DNA of 35,875 nt. Source: Octopus sinensis (lineage: Eukaryota). Of the stretch, positions 4,101 to 33,225 are shown piece after piece; position 1 is the first letter of the stretch, and each line of letters begins with the position of its first letter. The translations under genes were made by a program, and so were the position numbers. Location: positions 1 to 35,875 of the forward strand of contig NW_021826235.1 in the NCBI RefSeq assembly GCF_006345805.1, given 5' to 3'. The notes under the pieces are model-generated. The model saw only the letters and a program-made list of their open reading frames with translations, searched no databases and was not told the origin of the DNA.

Positions 4101-4300
4101 CAGCGATGACATCAACGGCGGCGACGACAGGAATAACAAGAGCAACACACCTTTAATGATAATGGTATAAAGGTAAGAGCAGTGATAGCATTGTCAGTGT
4201 AACATCAACCACAGCCTTAGCAACAACAGCTCTCTACCTGTAGAAATGATATGATGGTAGCGACACAACAAATACGATACACGCAAACGATGGAAACATT

Positions 4301-5310
4301 TACCTGGTCGCGCGATCTGTTAAGAAAAATAGCAGCAAAGTGTTCCTCAAATAATATCATTTCGTCTTAGCAAAAAAAAAAAGGGGGGGGGCACGTTGGA
4401 TAATGCGTAGAATCCTTGTTTCGCCTGCACGTAAGAAAAGGATGAGACGCAGATGATGAAAAGACCTACCTGGTCGCGCGATCTGTTAAGAAAAATAGCA
4501 GCAAAGTGTTCCGTAAATAATATCATTTCGTCTTAGCAAAAAAGTGGGGACATGTTGGATAAGGCATAGCATCCTTGTTTCACCTGCACGTAAGAAAAGG
4601 ATGAGACGGAGATGGTGGAAAGATCTACCTGGTCGCTCGATTTGTTAAAAAAAAACAGTAACAAAATGTTCCTGAAATAATACCATACCCTCTAAGGAAA
4701 AAAGGGACACGTTGGATAATGTATTGAATTCTTCCTTCTCCTGCACATAAGAAAAAGAAGAGGTGCAAATGAAGGAATATAGACGCAGGAGTGACTGTGT
4801 GGTAAGTAGCTTGCTTACCAACCACATGGTTCCGGGTTCAGTCCCACTACGTGGCACCTTGGGCAAGTGTCTTCTACTATAGCCTCGGGCCGACCAATGC
4901 CTTGTGAGTGGATTTGGTAGACGGAAACTGAAAGAAGCCCTTCGTATATATGTATATGTATACATATATGTGTGTGTGTGTGTGTGTGTTTGCGTGTCCG
5001 TGTTTGTCACCCCAATATCGCTTGTAACCGATGCTGGTGTGCTTACGTCCCCGTATCTAGCGGTTCGGCAAAAGAGACCGATAGAATAAGTAGTAGGGTT
5101 ACAACGAATAAGTCCTGGGGTCGATTTGCTCGACTAAAGGTGAAACAAGTAAAGAGAGAGAGAAAGATTTATCTGGTCGCTGAATCAGTCAAAAAAATAG
5201 GGAGTAAAATGTTCCTTAAGTTATACCCTATCGTTTTAGGAAAAGGGGACACATTGGATAATGTGTAGAATCCTCGATTTCCCTGCACTTAGAAAAATGA
5301 CGAGATGGAA
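4301..5310 (+). repeat. ~160-bp tandem repeat, four diverged units, interrupted by a SINE
   Basis: TACCTGGTCGC...AAAATAGCAGCAAAGTGTTCC...GTTGGATAA...CCTGCAC units start near 4302, 4467, 4626 and 5170. Confidence 0.85.
4781..5160 (+). mobile_element. SINE family A (tRNA-like head, CORE-like segment, internal microsatellite)
   Basis: Box A TGACTGTGTGG and box B GGTTCAGTCCC; CCTTGGGCAAGTGTCTT; high similarity to other copies in the window. Confidence 0.9.
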
Positions 5311-7736: not shown

Positions 7737-8161
7737 AGGTGCAGGAGTGGCTGTGTGGTAAGTAGCTTGCTAACCAACCACATGGTTCCGGGTTCAGTCC
7801 CACTGCGTGGCATCTTGGGCAAGTGTCCTCTGCTATAGCCCCGGGCCGACCAATGCCTTGTGAGTGGATTTGGTAGACGGAAACTGAAAGAAGCCTGTCG
7901 TATATATGTATATATATATATGTGTGTGTGTGTGTGTTTGTTTGTGTGTCTGTGTTTGTCCCCCCAACATCGCTTGACAATCGATGCTGGTGTGTTTATG
8001 TCCCCGTTACTTAGCGGTTCGGCAAAAGAGATCGATAGAATAAGTACTGGGCTTACAAAAAGAATAAGTCCCGGGGTCGAGTTGCTCGATTAAAGGCGGT
8101 GCTCCAGCATGGCCGCAGTCAAATGACTGAAACAAGTAAAAGAGTAAAAGAGTAAAGAGTA
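7737..8161 (+). mobile_element. SINE family A, full length
   Basis: AGGTGCAGGAGTGGCTGTGTGG head through GGTGCTCCAGCATGGCCGCAGTC...GACTGAAAC and an (AAAGAGTA)n tail. Confidence 0.93.
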
Positions 8162-10823: not shown

Positions 10824-11053
10824 TACTCTTTTACTCTCTTTTACTCTCTTTTACTTGTTTCAGTCATTTGACTGCGGCCATGCTGGAGCACCGCCTTTAG
10901 TCGAGCAAATCGACCCCGGGACTTATTCTTTTGTAAGCCCAGTACTTATTCTATCGGTCTCTTTTGCCGAACCGCTAAGTGACGGGGACGTAAACACACC
11001 AGAATCGGTTGTCAAGCAATGCTAGGGGGACAAACACAGACACACAAACACAT

Positions 11054-11098
<45 letters not shown>

Positions 11099-11264
11099 TA
11101 CGACAGGCTTCTTTCAGTTTCCGTCTACCAAATCCACTCACAAGGCATTGGTCGGCCCGGGGCTATAGCAGAAGACACTTTCCCAAGATGCCACGCAGTG
11201 GGACTGAACCCGGAACCATGTGGTTGGTTAGCAAGCTACTTACCACACAGCCACTCCTGCGCCT
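10824..11264 (-). mobile_element. SINE family A, full length
   Basis: Reverse complement of 7737-8161; (TACTCTTT)n-type tail at left. Confidence 0.93.
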
Positions 11265-11630
11265 ATAAAGATAATGTTTCATTTTTAATTGGTCATCAAG
11301 ACTTATAAATAAAATTTCAACAATAACGTTGCATAGCAGGAAGAGACATTTCAAACAGAATCTTTTCGGCAACCATCTAACTTCAACGAAGAGAAGTAGT
11401 GTTTCAAAATGTCCGTTATTCGTTTCACGTAACTGATTGAACAAGCTAATGTACAAGGCCCAAGCTTTAATTAGTGCTAACAGTAATTATCATTAAGGCC
11501 AGGCTTGAAGACAGCTTCTCATTAAGCTTTTTAACAGCAAGGTGTTGATTAGTTGCACTCTGAATCGCGAACAGAAACAGCATCTTTTTTCATCTGTAAC
11601 ACTAGATCAACTTGGCCACTTTCAACAGAT

Positions 11631-12125: not shown

Positions 12126-12956
12126 GGAATTTGAACACAGAACATAGCGGCAGACGAAATACCTATTTCTTTACTACCCACAAGGGGCTAAACATAGAGA
12201 GGACAAACAAGGACAGACAAACGGATTAAGTCGATTACATCAACCCCAGTGCGTAACTGGTACTTAATTTATCGACCCCGAAAGGATGAAAGGCAAAGTC
12301 GACCTCGGCGGAATTTGAACACAGAACGTAGCGGCAGACGAAATACCTATTTCTTTACTACCCACGAGGGGCTAAACACAGAGAGGACAAACAAGGACAG
12401 ACAGACAAACGGATTAAGTCGATTACATAAACCCCAGTGCGTAACTGGTACTTAATTTATCGACCCCGAAAGGATGAAAGGCAAAGTCGACCTCGGCGGA
12501 ATGTGAACTCAGAACTTAGCGGCAGACGAAATACCTATTTCTTTACTACCCACGAGGGGCTAAACACAGAGAGGACAAACAAGGACAGACAAACGGATTA
12601 AGTCGATTACATCAACCCCAGTGCGTAACTGGTACTTAATTTATCGACCCCGAAAGGATGAAAGGCAAAGTCGACCTCGGCGGAATTTGAACACAGAACG
12701 TAGCGGCAGACGAAATACCTATTTCTTTACTACCCACGAGGGGCTAAACACAGAGAGGACAAACAAGGACAGACAGACAAACGGATTAAGTCGATTACAT
12801 AAACCCCAGTGCGTAACTGGTACTTAATTTATCGACCCCGAAAGGATGAAAGGCAAAGTCGACCTCGGCGGAATTTGAACTTGGAACGTAACGGCAGACG
12901 AAATACGGCTACGCATTTCGCCCAGCGTGCTAACGTTTCTGCCAGCTCGCCGCCTT
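12126..12956 (-). mobile_element. Head-to-tail array of SINE family B: one full copy, three 5'-truncated units and one partial
   Basis: Unit 3' ends at 12164, 12348, 12536 and 12720 (184/188/184 bp). The tRNA-like head AAGGCGGCGAGCTGGCAGAAACGTTAG is present only in the rightmost copy. Box B GTTCAAATTCC; central GCCTTTCATCCTTTCGGGGTCGATAAATTAAGTACCAG domain. Confidence 0.93.
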
Positions 12957-13270: not shown

Positions 13271-13726
13271 AGATATAGATATAGATATAGATATAGATAC
13301 ATATATATATTATATATATATATATATAAGGAATGAATGTTTTTATATATAATGAACGTGAAATACAGGAAGGGACGAACACGGAACACAGACAAATCAT
13401 TCGAAGCCTTCAATCTTCAGTCAGACACCGAATCATCATAGCAAATTTCGGCTGTTCAAATCTGATATTTGCTCCAACTCGGCCAGCCCCAAGAAAAAAA
13501 ACTAAGCTGTAAGCATTAGATTTCTTGGTAGAGACAGGAATGTGAACGCACAAGACGGATGTGAATACAAGAGACGAAAACGAAATTGAAAACAGTAATG
13601 AATAAACAAAATATATATAACGGTGGTTGTCATACGACTTTAGACCAAATGAGACAAAAAACAACAACAACAACATAGCTGGCGTAGAAATAATTACCGT
13701 TTCGGTAGCGGGGACACATGTTGGTC

Positions 13727-15429
13727 TATTTCTTTATTACCCACTAGGGGCCACGAAGAGGGAACATTACAAACATGGGGGACATAAAACAATGCGATTA
13801 AAATTATGATTAATGAATGTTAAAATGAAAATGATAACATGAAAGCGATGCTAACGGCCCCCTCCGCCAGCATCACTTACCTTTCCGTTTCCTATCACGA
13901 TTCCAAAGTTTTCACCTCACCTTTCATTTCTCTCTCATATCTCTCTATCATATCATCCTTCATAAATGCTGAAAACAATTTATACGTAGTTCATTGCACT
14001 GCTCATCAAAGAGCCCATGAGTTCAAAATCGAATACCGCATAGCTTCCGTCCTCATACTCCTGCCATACATCGTCTTCAAAAAGCCTTCTTGCGTTCTCA
14101 GTATCCCTTCCCCACAACACATAAAAGTGACTGGGGCTTTTGTATGTTCTGTGTGTCTGTTTTCGTTTTTTCTTGTAGGCGGGGAGGGGTGGGATTGCTG
14201 TTTGCGGGGGCAGGATGGGTCTCCAAGGGTGTGGGTGGTATTGGGGTGGGTTGGGGCTTCGCACAGTTTTCCTTTTCTTTCCTTTTCTCTTCTTTCTGCC
14301 CTCCTCACACTCTTTTTGCATCTCCTCCTCCTCTGTCATTTCCCTTTCCGTCTGCTTCTCTGTAATTTCTTCTTCTTTTGGGGCCTCCTCTTTTGGAGTT
14401 TCCTCAACGATTTCCTTTTCTCTTGGTGGGGGAGGGCAGAAGGCTCTTATGTGGCCCCTCAGGCCACACTTGTAACAACGTGGAGCTCTGCCCTCCACCC
14501 ACACTCTCATAATCACGTCTCCCAATTTAATGCTCTCCGCCAGGTCCACCAGTACCTCGCTCTCCGCCTGCACGTTTAGCTCCACTATTACGCCTCTCCA
14601 GCCCTCGGTCTTGACCGAGGCATGGAGAATATCTACTTTCTCCTCGTGCCGCTGATCACAGCCGCCACAATCCACTCAGCCTCCACGTTTGGTGGCACGC
14701 CCTCCACCCTTACTCGTGTGATCCTTCTATTCAAGTACATAGGTAAAAGTGTTACCCTTTCTGACTTCACTGCCTTCACCGCCATCCTCCTCGCTGCAGT
14801 CTCACTTTTAAAATGCACCCTACAGTACCGTACTTCGATCCTCGAGTCAGGAAAATGATTCCTCCTCCGATCTTCTCAGGGCCTCCTCATCCATCCATGT
14901 TAACGATCTCTATTTTCTTTCTTTCGTTCACGAACACCCTGTAAATTATGGTCCTCTTATTGTACCATTCCTTTCTCTTTGGTGGTGGTTCCAGTTCCAC
15001 CTCGCCGCTGTCCTTCCTCATATACCTCTGGAAACCTGGCAATTTTCTAGGTTTATTCTTTTTCCTGTTCCCGTTCTTCTTTTTGCAACTCCTGCGTACG
15101 TTTTCCTGTTTTTTTTTCTCCACATTATTTACATCACCGATTTGCTCGTCTTCAGAGTTCGATGTCTCCGACAAGCTCTCAAATATCCATTCTTCCTCCG
15201 ACTCCTCCACTAGGGAAGTGGTCATCCATCTCCTCCCGCCTGACAGGCCAAAAACGGCCGTCAAAACAGAAAAAGTGTAACGCGCAGAACCAGTGGAACG
15301 CGAAACCGCTTAAACGCCGTTCAAAATTTCCACAACAACAACAACAATTCTTTTTGATCTTTTTTACCGAATTTTACGAGCGTAAAAAAACACGACCGAA
15401 CTCAAAACTGACGAACAGACAACTGATCC
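13727..15429 (-). mobile_element. ORF1-only non-autonomous non-LTR retroelement (HAL1-like 'half-LINE')
   Basis: Perfect 19-bp TSD GCGGGGACACATGTTGGTC (13708-13726 and 15430-15448). 5' end GGATCAGTT (Inr-like); single Gag-like frame; ~250-nt 3'UTR ending GCCCCTAGTGGGTAATAAAGAAATA; no room for RT. Confidence 0.85.
13980..15225 (-). pseudogene. Gag/LINE ORF1-like nucleic-acid-binding protein (RRM-like region plus CCHC zinc knuckle), frameshifted as assembled
   Basis: Joins track ORFs 14887-15264, 14633-14818 and 13980-14675: RTIIYRVF...IIFLTRGSKYGTV.VHFKSETAARR...TRVRVEGVPPNV...RVWVEGRAPRCYKCGLRGHIRAFC (CX2CX4HX4C at 14436-14477), followed by an acidic/basic tail. Stop at 14887; 1-nt shifts near 14820 and 14645. 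Confidence 0.85.
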
Positions 15430-15828
15430 GCGGGGACACATGTTGGTCGAGATACGAAGGCCAACAGAATGGTTTAAGAAGCAGCAGGTCGCAGGAGAGA
15501 GAGAAAGAGAGACAGAGAGAGAGGAAATCAAAGAGGGTGGAAGGCAGGGGACAGAATCAGTGACCAAGAGAAAAGGAGAAAGAAGGGATTAAGGAGGATG
15601 GGAGGAAGAGGGGAGGAGGATGGGAGGAAGAGAGGGGAAGAATCGGAGGGCGCCAAAAAGTTTGGTGAAGAAGCAATGGCGGGTAGGAAAGGACGTTTTT
15701 ATAGAAGTCGTGCAGGGGGTTTAAAATTGGACAAACAAACGGGGGGGGGGGGTGCACGTAACGCCGCAATAATATAAGAATGAATGTTTTTATATATAAT
15801 GAACGTGAAATACAGGAAGGGACGAACA

Positions 15829-24545: not shown

Positions 24546-24930
24546 TTTACTCTTTTACTTGTTTCAGTCATGTGACTGTGGCCATGCTGGAGCATCACCT
24601 GTAGTCGAGCAAATCGACTCGAGGACTTATTCTTTGTAAGCCTAGTACTTATTCTATCGGTCTCTTTTGCCGAACCATTAAGTTACGGGGCCGTAAACAC
24701 ACCAGTATCGGTTATCAAGCGATGTTGGGGGACAAACACGGACACACAAACATATACACACACACATATATATATGGGCTTCTTTCAGTTTCCGTCTACC
24801 AAATCCACTCACAAGACTTTGGTCGGCCCGTGGCTATAGTAGAAGACACTTGCCCAAGGTGCCACGCAGTGGAACTGAACCCGGAATCATGTGGTTCGTA
24901 AGCAAGCTACCTACCACACAGCTATTCCTA
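24546..24930 (-). mobile_element. SINE family A
   Basis: Similarity to 10824-11264. Confidence 0.9.
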
Positions 24931-25902: not shown

Positions 25903-26333
25903 GGATATTTTCGGTTTGAACGGCAGTTTTTCTAGCGGTGTCATATGAAATTGTCACCCATAATTATGACCCTAGTATCGATCTATTGCACTTCAATCTG
26001 TTTTAGGGTTAGTTTTAGTTAGGGTTAGGGTTAGGGGTGGGGGAAGGGTATCTTTTTTTCTTCACAAATGTAAATAAATCCAATCTGTTTCTTAAACGAG
26101 GGACATATTCATACGGTACAGAATGATTTTTAACTCAATAGACGTCACTGATTGGTTGAAATTGCAGAAATTGAAGAAAAAGAACAACAAATATCTTACA
26201 AACTATAGAATTTTATCAATAAAGCCAAGAGAAAAAGATGTTTTATAAACATATTCTACCAGTATACGAAGTTTAAAATTTTTTAGTTATCTAGAAATTA
26301 TGTTAAAAACTGCCGTTCAAACCGAAAAGATCC
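25903..26333. mobile_element. MITE with GG termini and 8-bp TSD (Merlin-like)
   Basis: TIR GGAT(A/C)TTTTCGGTTTGAACGGCAGTTTTT; flanks CAGAAAAG / CAGAAAAA; internal TTAGGG repeats at ~26003-26035. Confidence 0.85.
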
Positions 26334-27974: not shown

Positions 27975-28380
27975 TACTCTCTTTTACTCTTTTACTTGTT
28001 TCAGTCATTTGACTGCGGCCATGCTGGAGCACCGCCTTTAGTCGAGCAAATCGACCCCGGGACTTATTCTTTGTAAGCCCAGTACTTATTCCATCGGTCT
28101 CTTTTGCCGAACCGCTAAGTAACGGGGACGTAAACACACCAACATCGGTTGTCAAGCAATGCTAGGGGGGCAAACACAGACACACAAACATATACACACA
28201 CACTTATATATATATATACATATATACGACAGGCTTCTTTCAGTTTCCGTCTACCAAATCCACTCACAAGGCATTGGTCGGCCCGGGGCTATAGCAGAAG
28301 ACACTTGCCCAAGATGCCACGCAGTGGGACTGAACCCGGAACCATGTGGCTGGTTAGCAAGCTACTTACCACACAGCCAC
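27975..28380 (-). mobile_element. SINE family A
   Basis: Similarity to the other A copies. Confidence 0.92.
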
Positions 28381-29545: not shown

Positions 29546-29965
29546 ACTCTCTTTACTCTTTTACTCTTTTACTTGTTTCAGTCATTTGACTGCGGCCATG
29601 CTGGAGCACCACCTTTAGTCGAGCAAATCGACCCCAGGACTTATTCTTTTTAAGCCCAGTACTTATTCTATCGGTCTCTTTTGCCGAACCGCTAAGTGAC
29701 AGGGACGTAAACACACCAGCATCGGTTGTCAAGCAATGCTAGGGGGACAAACACAGACACACAAACATATACACACACACTTATATATATATACATATAT
29801 ACGACAGGCTTCTTTCAGTTTCCGTCTACCAAATCCACTCACAAGGCATTGGTCAGCCCGGGGCTATAGCAGAAGACACTTGCCCAAGGTGCCACACAGT
29901 GGGACTGAACCCGGAACCATGTGGTTGGTTAGCAAGCTACTTACCACACAGCCACTCCTGCACCT
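29546..29965 (-). mobile_element. SINE family A, full length
   Basis: Similarity to the other A copies. Confidence 0.92.
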
Positions 29966-30114
29966 ATTGTTGAATCACCCTGTATATTCCCTTTAGAAAA
30001 TGCAAGGACACGTCAGACAGCGTAGTTCCATCTACACTAATATATGACAAAAAGCAAGGAAGGTCATGGCTGGAGTGTATTAGATCATAGGTCTACTACA
30101 CCAAGTATTCTTTC

Positions 30115-30752
30115 TTTTTCCTTTACTGCCCGCAAGGGACTACACACAAAGGGGACAAACAAGGACAGACAAAGGGATTTAGTCGATTATATCGACCCCA
30201 GTGCGTAACTGGTACTTAATTTATCGACCCCGAAAGGATGAAAGGCAAAGTCGACCTCGGCGGAATGTGAACTCAGAACGTAACGGCAGACGAAATACCT
30301 ATTTCTTTACTGCCCACAATGGGCTAAACACAGAGAGGACAAACAAGGACAGACAGACGGATTAAGTCGATTACATCGACCCCAGTGTGTAACTGGTACT
30401 TAATTTATCCACCCCGAAAGGATGAAAGGCAAAGTCGACCTTGGCGGAATTTGAACTCAGAATGTAGCGGCAGAGGAAATACAGCTAAGCATTTCCCCCC
30501 ATCGTTCTAACGTTTCTTATTTCTTTATTGTCCACAAGTGGCTAAACATAGAGGGGACAAACAAGGACAGACAAAGGGATTTAGTCGATTATATCGACCC
30601 CAGTGCGTAACTGGTACTTAATTTATCGACCCCGAAAAGATGAAAGGTAAAGTCGACCTCGGCGGAATTTGAGCTCAGAACGTAACGGCAGACGAAATAG
30701 TGCTAAGCATTTCCCCACCGGCGTGCTAACGGTTCTGCCAGCTCGCCGCCTT
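30115..30752 (-). mobile_element. Head-to-tail SINE family B array (three units)
   Basis: Unit 3' ends at ~30115, 30300 and 30518; full head at 30725-30752. Confidence 0.92.
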
Positions 30753-30884: not shown

Positions 30885-32691
30885 GGTATGTTGTTTTCGT
30901 TGTTATTCTTGTTGTCATTGCTGCTGTTGCTGCTGCTGCTGGTGTTGTTTGTTATTGTTGTTGTTGTTGTTTTTTTTTGGTTGTTGTTATTGTTGTTGCA
31001 GTTGCTTTTCTCTTCAAGCCTGCTTTAACAAACAGAGGTGGTGGCGGCGGTGGTGGTGGTAGTGGTCGTGAAGATGATCGTAGCAATGGTAACGGTGGTA
31101 GTGGTGGTGGTGGTGGTAGTGGTGGTGGTGGTGGTGGTGGTGGTGGTGGTGGCGGCGGTGGTGGTGGTGATGGTGGAGGAGCGGTAGTAATGGTGGCGGT
31201 GGTGGTGGTGGTGATGGTGGAGGTGGTGGTGGTGGTGGTGGTGGTGGAGCGGTAGTAATGGTGGTGGTGATGGTGGTGGCGGTGGTGGCAGTGGTGGTGA
31301 AGATGATCGTAGCAATGGTAACGGTGGTGGTGGTGGTGTTAATGGTGGCGGCGGTGATGGTGGTGGTGGTGGTGGCGGTGGTAGTGGTGGTGGTGATGGT
31401 AACTGCGGTGATGGTGGTGGTGGCGGCGGCGCAGTTAATAATTGCGACTGTTATGATGGTTGTAATCACCGCAGTCGTGTTGGCAATGCTCTGTGGCAAC
31501 GACCGTTTCAGCGGTAATGGTGAGATTGTCGTGGTTGAAGTAGTGGTGGTGGTGGTGGCCATGGTCATGGTGGGGGATGACGGTTGCAATGGCAGTGACG
31601 GTGGTATGGGGGATGAAGGTTTTGAATACACATTGCAATACGAATACACATTGACCTTCGTAGCGGTGGCGGATGTTGATTTGATGACCATTGAAGTGGT
31701 GGTGGTGTTGGTAATGGTATGTGCGGGGTGGAGGGTGAAGGGAAACCGTGATGATTGTGGTGACAGTGGTGGTAATGGTGGCGGTAGCGGTGGTGGTGGT
31801 GGTGGTGGTGGCGGTAGGGGTGGTGGTGTTGGTGGTCGTGGTGGTCGTGGTGGTCGTGGTGGTAATGGTGGCGGTAGCAGTGGTGGTGGTGGTGGTGGTG
31901 GTGGTAATGGTGGCGGTAGCGGTGGTGGTGGTGGTGGTGGTGGTGGTGGTGGTGTGGTGGTGGCGGTAGCGGTGGTGTGGTGGTGGTGGTGGTGGTGGTG
32001 GTGGTGGTGGTGGTGGTGGTGGTAGCGGTGGTGGTGGTGGTGGTGGTGGTGGTAATGGTGACGGTAGCGGTGGTAGTGGTGGTGGTGGTGGTGGTGTTGG
32101 TAATGGTGGGTGGAGGGTGAAGGGAAACCGTGATGATTGTGGTGACAGTGGTGGTATGGTGACTGTAGCGGTGGTGGTGGTGGTGGTTCGAAATTGACCA
32201 TCATAATGATGGCAGAGCTGGTGGTGGTGACCGTTGTAGTAGCGAGGGTGATAGAGAAGGAATCATTGTCGAAGTGGTGGTGGTGGTGGTTTAATCCCTT
32301 TGTCTGTCCTTGTTTGTCCCCTCTATGTTTAACCCCTTGTGGGTAATAAAGAAATAGGTATTCGTGTTGGTGTGGGAAGTGAAGATGATCATGGTGTTGG
32401 TGGTGGTGGTGGTGGTGGTGGTGTTACTGTTGTTGTTTTCGTTGTTGTTGTTGTTGTTGTTGTTACTCTTGGTGGTGGTGTTGGTGATGGTGGTGGTGAT
32501 AGTAATGATAGTAGTAGTAGTAGTAATGATTATGTTGGCAATAGTGATCGTGGTGGAGATGATGATGATGATGATGATAAGGAAGATGGCTGAAGATTGC
32601 CCTTCGAAGTCGTGGTGGAGCTGAGCCGGTGATAAAGGCCGTTATTAGCTGTAGTGGCGACGGCGGCGCAGAAAGAGTGATCACAGTAGTT

Positions 32692-32726
<35 letters not shown>

Positions 32727-32931
32727 GGTGGTGGTGGTGGTGGTGGTCGTCGTCGTCGTCGTCGTCGTAGTTGTAGTGGTGGTGGTGGTCGTCGTCGTCG
32801 TCGTAGTATTGGTAGTGGTGGTGGTGGTGGTGGTGGTCATCGTCGTCGTCGTAGTAATAGAAGTAGTGGTGGTGATGGAGGTCGTGGTAGTGGTGGTGGT
32901 CATCGTCGTCGTCGTTGTCGTCGTCGTCGTC

Positions 32932-32963
<32 letters not shown>

Positions 32964-33117
32964 GGTGGTGGTGGTGGTGGTGGTGGTGGTGGCGGTGGCG
33001 GTCGTCGTCGTAGTTGTAGTGGTGGTGGTGGTCGTCGTCATCGTCGTAGTAGTGGTGGTGGTGGTGGTTGTGGTGGTGGTGGTGGTGGTCATCGTCGTCG
33101 TCGTCGTCGTAGTAGTT

Positions 33118-33153
<36 letters not shown>

Positions 33154-33225
33154 TAGTAGTAGTAGTAGTATAGCAGTAGTGGTGATGATGGTGGTGGTGG
33201 TGGTAGTGGTGACGTTGTTAATAAT
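30885..33225. repeat. Large triplet low-complexity tract (GGT/GTA/GTC/GTT/GAT)n with internal duplications
   Basis: Direct reading; GTGAAGATGATCGTAGCAATGGTAACGG at ~31068 and 31297; GGTGGAGGGTGAAGGGAAACCGTGATGATTGTGG at ~31727 and 32109. Confidence 0.95.
32291..32356 (+). mobile_element. Isolated SINE family B 3' tail
   Basis: TTAATCCCTTTGTCTGTCCTTGTTTGTCCCC...CCCCTTGTGGGTAATAAAGAAATA followed by GGTATT. Confidence 0.85.

Follow-up and report, generated by a model that had tools for sequence, protein, structure and literature searches.

Non-autonomous LINEs that retain ORF1 have been described from several clades, and the accessible text of one source lists HeT-A from Jockey, HAL1 from L1 and Ag-Sponge from CR1 (PMC5786205). 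HAL1 elements are full-length and non-autonomous, encode only ORF1 and, in the available parts of two papers, are described as having kept ORF1 coding for long periods (PMC3627910, PMC5753468). At fly telomeres, ORF1-only radiations of the Jockey clade, HeT-A among them, depend on the ORF2 of relatives, as far as the accessible portion of that account goes (10.1101/2025.06.09.658640). Type I ORF1 proteins have been linked with Tx1 in non-mammalian animals (PMC5203782, available portion). Insertion of Tx1L into Tx1D and of Tx1-Mar and SINEU into Mariner-N4, with tandem SINEU copies sandwiching a duplication, is described in the part of PMC4494074 that is available. In octopus, 80 L1-Tx1 consensus sequences and active L1-Tx1 families have been reported, with ORF1-only forms unmentioned in the accessible part of that work (PMC13282606). 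Non-LTR retrozymes are presented, again in a partial text, as Penelope-like derivatives with tandem units and type I hammerhead motifs (10.64898/2026.07.22.740005). ORF1-only LINEs are thus already known (HAL1, HeT-A, Ag-Sponge); a Tx1-derived, non-telomeric ORF1-only family or radiation was not found in the literature searched, a search that lay outside Repbase/Dfam and most subscription papers.

The window analyzed here is a stretch of 35,875 nucleotides from Octopus sinensis (contig NW_021826235.1). It contains a copy of an element, F1, that is very probably an active-looking ORF1-only LINE derivative with its own RRM-RRM-CCHC protein, likely copied in trans via TPRT by a tail-recognizing Tx1-like ORF2 protein. 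F1 encodes a LINE ORF1 homologue, as do the ORF1-present non-autonomous LINEs of the HAL1, HeT-A and Ag-Sponge kind. The initial annotation had named HAL1 as the precedent; this stands for the ORF1-only, non-autonomous kind of element but not for the parent, which appears to be Tx1-like and not mammalian L1, so that HeT-A and HAL1 serve equally well as analogues. Like HAL1, F1 is full-length, ORF1-only and long conserved in its ORF1 coding. HAL1 comes from mammalian L1 and has a type II ORF1, whereas F1 has a type I ORF1, a common ~45-nt tail in place of a poly(A) tail, mixed arrays and re-used sites; F1 is therefore no HAL1 in the strict sense of a mammalian L1 origin and a Transposase_22 ORF1. 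In the available accounts, HeT-A and its Drosophila telomeric kin share with F1 a borrowed ORF2, head-to-tail arrays and ORF1-only lineages that spawn new ones. They belong to the Jockey clade and to chromosome ends, in contrast to the interior arrays of F1, whose units are joined by duplication-like spacers, and F1 falls outside the telomeric class of Jockey elements arrayed at chromosome ends, the RT of its candidate partner being probably of L1/Tx1 type. Ag-Sponge, from mosquito, is likewise an ORF1-present non-autonomous LINE in the accessible text, but it derives from CR1, and the list in PMC5786205, to the extent that it is available, holds no Tx1-derived case.

Exact 19-bp direct repeats with 1703 bp between them had been described at this locus and were reproduced, as was the absence of RT and endonuclease from the unit, whose coding region lies on the minus strand (Table 1). 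The 3' end of the unit is as previously given, AATAAAGAAATA. The frame of ~415 codons was an underestimate: intact siblings have 460-463 aa (9 of the 30 best copies), which sets ORF1 at 15229 to 13851 and leaves a 3'UTR of ~125 nt where ~250 nt had been proposed. A 51-bp direct repeat (13331-13381 and 15778-15828), absent from the initial annotation, marks a ~720-bp host repeat around F1, referred to here as host A.

Table 1. Coordinates of F1 and of neighboring features in the window
Feature	Position	Strand	Basis
F1 (ORF1-only non-autonomous non-LTR retroelement, full length)	13727..15429	-	genome matches, window included
ORF1, 463 aa in intact siblings, broken in window copy by 21 indel events	13851..15229	-	sibling comparison
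CCHC zinc knuckle of F1	14436..14477	-	motif; Pfam zf-CCHC weak in F1
~45-nt 3' tail of F1, common to T1, T2, other ORF1-only families and SINE	13727..13772	-	
5' extension with Inr-like TCAGTT, similar to host-C target-site duplication	15410..15429	-	
Target-site duplication, 3' side of F1	13708..13726	.	
Target-site duplication, 5' side of F1	15430..15448	.	
Host repeat A, downstream part, alpha subfamily; fixed end, then (TA)n	13331..13726	-	
Host repeat A, upstream part; unit ~700-720 bp, often tandem/inverted; 51-bp terminal redundancy	15430..15828	-	
SINE tandem array, ~4 units of ~185 bp, ending in F1-type tail	12126..12906	-	

Other repeats are also found in the window. They include a ~220-bp repeat that is dispersed in either orientation at 90-95% similarity (4778-5003, 7737-8060, 10929-11267, 24776-24929, 28070-28380 and 29647-29967), a 159-bp tandem repeat of 3.1 copies (4281-4777), a short interstitial TTAGGG run (26003-26034) and a 2.2-kb GGT/GTA-rich microsatellite tract (31037-33211). 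Rfam searches of the window and the hosts returned only microsatellite-driven miRNA noise.

F1 belongs to a family of ~60 near-identical copies; its exact 3' tail occurs 56 times in the genome, and the reversed-tail control gives 0. A genome search with the unit, in which the best 39 of 729 candidates were scored, found at least 64 matches, 43 of which are near-complete (from nt 77 or earlier to nt 1660 or later) at 92-100% identity, the window copy included. The copies are dispersed on more than 15 chromosome-scale contigs, and their outer flanks are unrelated. Multiple copies of the same length with different duplications, as expected of a retrotransposed family, were found; the duplications are ~14-23 bp long and differ by locus, 5'-truncated copies included, with lengths scored allowing one mismatch, an overshoot of ~1 base and several sites scored as having none. 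F1 has thus been retrotransposed independently many times, with duplications that vary and with 5' truncation of some copies, and its description as a young family agrees with the 92-98% identity among copies. On this sequence evidence the F1 family is real and likely active.

The 19-mer is no part of the element, as there are 381 exact empty sites and other loci carry other duplications. The claim that the 19-bp repeats are a target-site duplication holds, but 19 of 46 copies have this 19-mer at their flanks, since all of these lie at one shared site in a multicopy host, and the duplication alone therefore cannot date the window locus. Of the 46 distinct copies, host A holds 19, host B 4 and host C 3; another 4 lie at the 5' end of the LINE T2, and 16 are elsewhere.

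An Inr-like TCAGTT is present at the 5' end, as had been noted, but within a ~20-nt piece that older copies lack. The first ~20 nt of F1 are almost the same as the host-C target-site duplication and also match the junction in the related host B, and older copies begin at nt 21-38. Because of this match and these older starts, the 5' extension with its Inr-like motif was likely captured as flank from an earlier insertion site.

The window copy differs from an intact sibling by 21 indel events and 8 substitutions in the ORF, the most indels among the 19 host-A copies (0-12 in the others). The frameshifts had been placed within 14640-14900; in fact the indels are spread across the entire ORF. In the host flanks of this copy, indels are slightly more frequent than among empty host copies. 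Contigs from two public runs (studies P1 and P2) mostly have the extra base at six of the window gaps, but they pool all copies and so provide no test of the window locus itself; no listed run is on record as RNA, and contigs of two further public runs, presumed to be RNA, gave partial cover only. Assembly error is the likely source of the frameshifts.

The ORF1 protein of F1 has an acidic N-terminus, an RRM-RRM region, the CCHC knuckle, a charged, proline-rich linker and a C-terminal region. The RRM-like region and knuckle read from the initial sequence are borne out by the prediction of two RRM-type folds. Structure prediction from a 70-sequence ORF1 alignment reached a pLDDT of 94, and the predicted fold matches tandem-RRM proteins (best E 3e-5); VIA-align Z values of 7-9 reflect the common RRM arrangement only. 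Pfam zf-CCHC scores E 0.056 in F1 and lies above the cut-off in two relatives. No match to Transposase_22, the type II ORF1, was found in F1 or in 70 aligned relatives, and in a protein atlas the F1 ORF1 lies nearest CCHC/RRM and ZCCHC3-like clusters (0.90-0.92). The protein is a type I ORF1 (RRM-RRM-CCHC) as judged from the predicted model. A word-index protein search with the ORF1 core returned no match; a full HMMER search with ORF1 returned 343 relatives, and the closest named ones are octopus proteins. One relative is annotated as 'EPM2A-interacting 1-like'. Identity is 31-42% to ORF1s that lie upstream of endonuclease-RT genes in the same genome and 36-38% to the autonomous ORF1s sampled.

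ORF1-only status extends to the relatives of F1. Among 45 scorable ORF1 relatives at 66-95% identity, found at 40 loci taken from the more divergent of the best 150 of 13235 candidates, the tail comes first in 42, continuation into ORF2 is seen in 0 and 3 are undecided; the tail lies ~660-705 nt beyond the ORF1 match in 40 of the 42. F1 falls in an ORF1-only clade I (support 100/99) with families at 58-87% identity. A second ORF1-only clade (families F4 and F5, support 100/100) stands apart; a long-branch warning attaches to how the two clades join. Locus maps of three F4 copies show the tail with no endonuclease downstream. Selection on ORF1 is purifying: across 23 representatives omega is 0.21 (LRT 460 against omega = 1), computed on stop-free stretches only, and pairwise values are 0.09-0.23 in 19 of 22 comparisons, with two at 0.41 and 0.50 and one saturated. 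Conservation of ORF1 extends to the point of synonymous saturation. Synonymous changes are enriched among those shared within F1 (12 synonymous, 9 non-synonymous; p=0.0008), while the private ones lie closer to neutrality (14:24, p=0.054).

Taken together, the ORF1 identity of 36-38% to sampled autonomous elements, the 42 of 45 relatives that end in the tail with none continuing into ORF2 and the omega of 0.21 indicate that F1 is a member of an old, apparently self-propagating ORF1-only lineage. Since only the best candidates were scored, an autonomous source with an F1-like ORF1 is rated as unlikely, though conceivable.

ORF1-only families from both clades form head-to-tail arrays, mixed with autonomous LINEs, that have a period of ~1750 bp; one locus holds at least nine units. 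The arrays often end in an autonomous element, and ORF1-only units lie directly upstream in 7 of the 20 loci around near-intact ORF2, two of the seven being near-duplicates. They are found in chromosome interiors, e.g., on C6 at 70.5 Mb of 120 Mb. The duplication-like spacers that join units are often similar within an array and different between arrays, and spacers specific to an array are common to different families. Long arrays of six to nine ORF1-only units were seen at L253 (C6 ~70.54-70.56 Mb), C5 ~48.43 Mb, C24 ~5.67 Mb and L164. Separately, relatives of F1 are inserted repeatedly at one SINE-head position (L234-L236, L240, L244 and L250). Two database entries also fall here: a 1434-aa protein with 26 matching stretches (P0002) and an ORF1 relative that carries a host-gene annotation (P0003), each of which may be a gene call on an ORF1-only array.

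Candidates for the borrowed machinery are two-ORF LINEs with endonuclease, RT and zf-RVT domains that adjoin several F1 copies. Two of them, T1 and T2, have an RRM/CCHC ORF1 and an ORF2 with APE endonuclease, RT and C-terminal zinc finger. T1 is young, with an open frame of at least 1120 aa in 20 of the best 150 scored T1 hits; T2 has 11 further copies at 95-99% identity, in none of which was an intact whole ORF2 established. Among clade-named proteins, the T1 RT matches a 'Transposon TX1' protein best (292 bits over 381 aa); human L1 ORF2p scores lower (221 bits over 865 aa). By RT, the nearest named relative of the partner LINE comes from Argonauta. T1 and T2 are provisionally classed as Tx1-like LINEs on one named RT match and the ORF1 type.

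An abundant SINE, young T1 and T2 and F1 all end in one ~45-nt tail. Tail alignment scores against F1 are modest (T2 91, T1 73, SINE 67), and the tail of T2 is the one most like that of F1. These common tails, together with co-location, suggest mobilization in trans and a candidate partner, and the SINE in the window was likely moved by the same machinery as F1. The window holds SINE copies at 12126-12906, 25085, 30121-30736 and 32332, several of them tandem, with the tail joined to an internal head position. In the proposed mechanism, a ~1.7-kb F1 transcript would be coated by its own ORF1 protein, the ORF2 protein of T2 (the best tail match) or of T1 would bind the F1 tail, and this protein would nick the target with a 14-23-nt stagger and copy the F1 RNA. 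The F1 lineage would have lost ORF2 long ago, with new ORF1-only families arising since.

How F1 came to occupy the same base of so many host repeats is a separate question from how it is copied. Host A is ~720 bp long with one fixed end at (TA)n and one variable end, and it occurs as tandem and inverted copies. Its 381 empty sites carry the 19-mer once per copy, and there are 13 exact filled 3' junctions. In 13 filled loci the flanks are concordant by host subfamily (10 alpha/alpha, 3 beta/beta and 0 hybrid), and both subfamilies also occur empty. Beta-hosted F1 elements are rejected as a clade (p-AU 4.7e-9), and F1 pairs across host subfamilies differ by only 3, 4 and 8 substitutions, compared with 18-60 for tandem neighbors and a median of 29 for all pairs. 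The concordant flanks, the rejected beta clade and the close cross-host pairs indicate at least two, and likely more, separate entries into host A. It is therefore likely that the host-A site has been re-used by repeated insertion, with the same 19-mer resulting at dispersed loci and between tandem copies. F1 haplotypes are mosaic and ~3 of 57 empty host-A units are alpha/beta recombinants, so conversion or template switching could mimic re-insertion.

One alternative is pure hitchhiking, with one insertion per host followed by copying of host and cargo by the Penelope-like machinery of the host, the 19-mer being inherited. As a full account this is rather doubtful. It would suit the uniform 5' ends at host A, where all 19 copies have the same full end and none is truncated beyond nt 40, against 6 of 16 truncated elsewhere (p=0.005, in a copy set that favors full-length copies), and it would suit hosts B and C still better. 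The host-B copies form one clade (98/96), and two of the host-C copies are truncated internally, lack a duplication and have no host sequence upstream for ~10 kb. Hosts B and C also carry a putative type I hammerhead, a descriptor match with three stems, in tandem units, ~70 nt downstream (Rfam gave no score for it), and T1 and T2 are never found at sites A, B and C (0/29 and 0/25). Set against this, near-identical elements sit in different host-A subfamilies, each with concordant flanks and each also occurring empty, and where element-only copies stand in tandem with the 19-mer between them, neighbors are not one another's nearest kin. Hitchhiking would also leave unexplained the copies that have duplications of their own at unique sites. 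In hosts B and C, F1 has likely spread in part by hitchhiking with the host, alongside the repeated insertion favored for host A.

Hosts B and C resemble non-LTR retrozymes, as these are described in the available text, in having tandem units with a putative type I hammerhead, but unlike them they have a coding cargo of 1.7 kb. At L013, L019, L026, L022, L173 and L107, two related tandem repeats of ~490 bp were seen, with minimal type I hammerhead motifs and a palindromic stem III, which Rfam does not score. The 5' junctions of the duplication-less truncated copies L102 and L107 are preceded by the same 10-nt motif. Host A has a Penelope-like architecture; no hammerhead was found in it by Rfam or descriptor in L080, L063, L070, L055 or the window. 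A short-motif search for an autonomous partner of host A matched one locus, and for one Penelope-like frame no match lay close to the hosts.

A second alternative is that endonuclease sequence specificity, as in the Tx1 clade, selects the host-A site directly. In the accessible text Tx1 families target transposons and SINEU tandems sandwich a duplication (PMC4494074), and F1 likewise shows insertion into transposons, long duplications and such tandems. Most F1 3' flanks start with GA or GG, and 14 of 29 T1 copies lie at a single site, perhaps through hitchhiking (T2 flanks are mostly diverse). The reading is nonetheless unlikely, being weakened by the 0/54 T1 and T2 copies at sites A, B and C, so that engine and cargo sites differ, and by the lack of any host-A truncation beyond nt 40; site A yielded no copy that is both 5'-truncated and flanked by a duplication. 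The recurrent F1 sites also have little in common past the first two bases. In Tx1 and SINEU, cargo and engine share one target and truncated copies are found there too, neither of which applies to F1, and the F1 cargo, unlike SINEU, is protein-coding. A further host, D, a short ORF1-like fragment, has one site re-used by T1 and several ORF1-only families; the host-D loci (L129-L150, L175, L183, L186 and L187) have the same flanks and different array contents.

Repeated insertion could be directed in another way, and a tentative proposal is that target choice is RNA-templated. In R1Bm, read-through transcripts are reported to pair at the target. Read-through F1 transcripts with the donor duplication and flank at both ends might similarly pair with a homologous nicked site, so that the element would home to the same base of other hosts or beside itself. 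Targets would thus be inherited family by family, and Tx1-like elements, ORF1-only and autonomous alike, would build HeT-A/TART-like trains in chromosome interiors. This possibility fits the different recurrent sites of engine and cargo, the invariant full-length junctions at site A and the transfer between host subfamilies, as well as the 5' extension of likely host-C origin, which matches the host-B junction too, and the array-specific spacers common to different families.

Two further readings of the unit itself fare far worse. A one-off internal LINE deletion, or decayed junk spread by segmental duplication, would suit the heavily frameshifted window copy but is highly improbable given the dispersal over more than 15 chromosome-scale contigs, where outer flanks are unrelated and copies have duplications of their own, and given an ORF1 that is far from the autonomous ORF1s sampled and conserved to synonymous saturation; it is refuted by the 0 of 45 relatives with ORF2 and the omega of 0.21. 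A Gag-only LTR or retrovirus-like element, suggested by the weak match of the CCHC to nucleocapsid knuckles, is barely credible and is refuted by the lack of terminal repeats in F1, its variable 14-23-bp duplications and 5' truncations, the tandem-RRM fold and the homology to ORF1 upstream of endonuclease-RT genes.

For the ORF1-only LINE derivative favored here, several consequences follow. An identical long duplication can be genuine and yet be common to many loci. Octopus repeat libraries may mislabel ORF1-only arrays as L1-Tx1 fragments or as host genes. The ORF1-only strategy, listed earlier for the Jockey, L1 and CR1 clades, would extend to a Tx1-like lineage in octopus chromosome interiors; fly telomeres are the best-known setting of lasting ORF1-only radiations with mixed head-to-tail arrays. 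With a single tail common to a SINE and to cargo and engines that are both young, the octopus would offer natural sequences for testing two questions: why a parasite retains its own ORF1 for so very long while ORF2 is borrowed, and whether LINE target choice can pass through flanking RNA.
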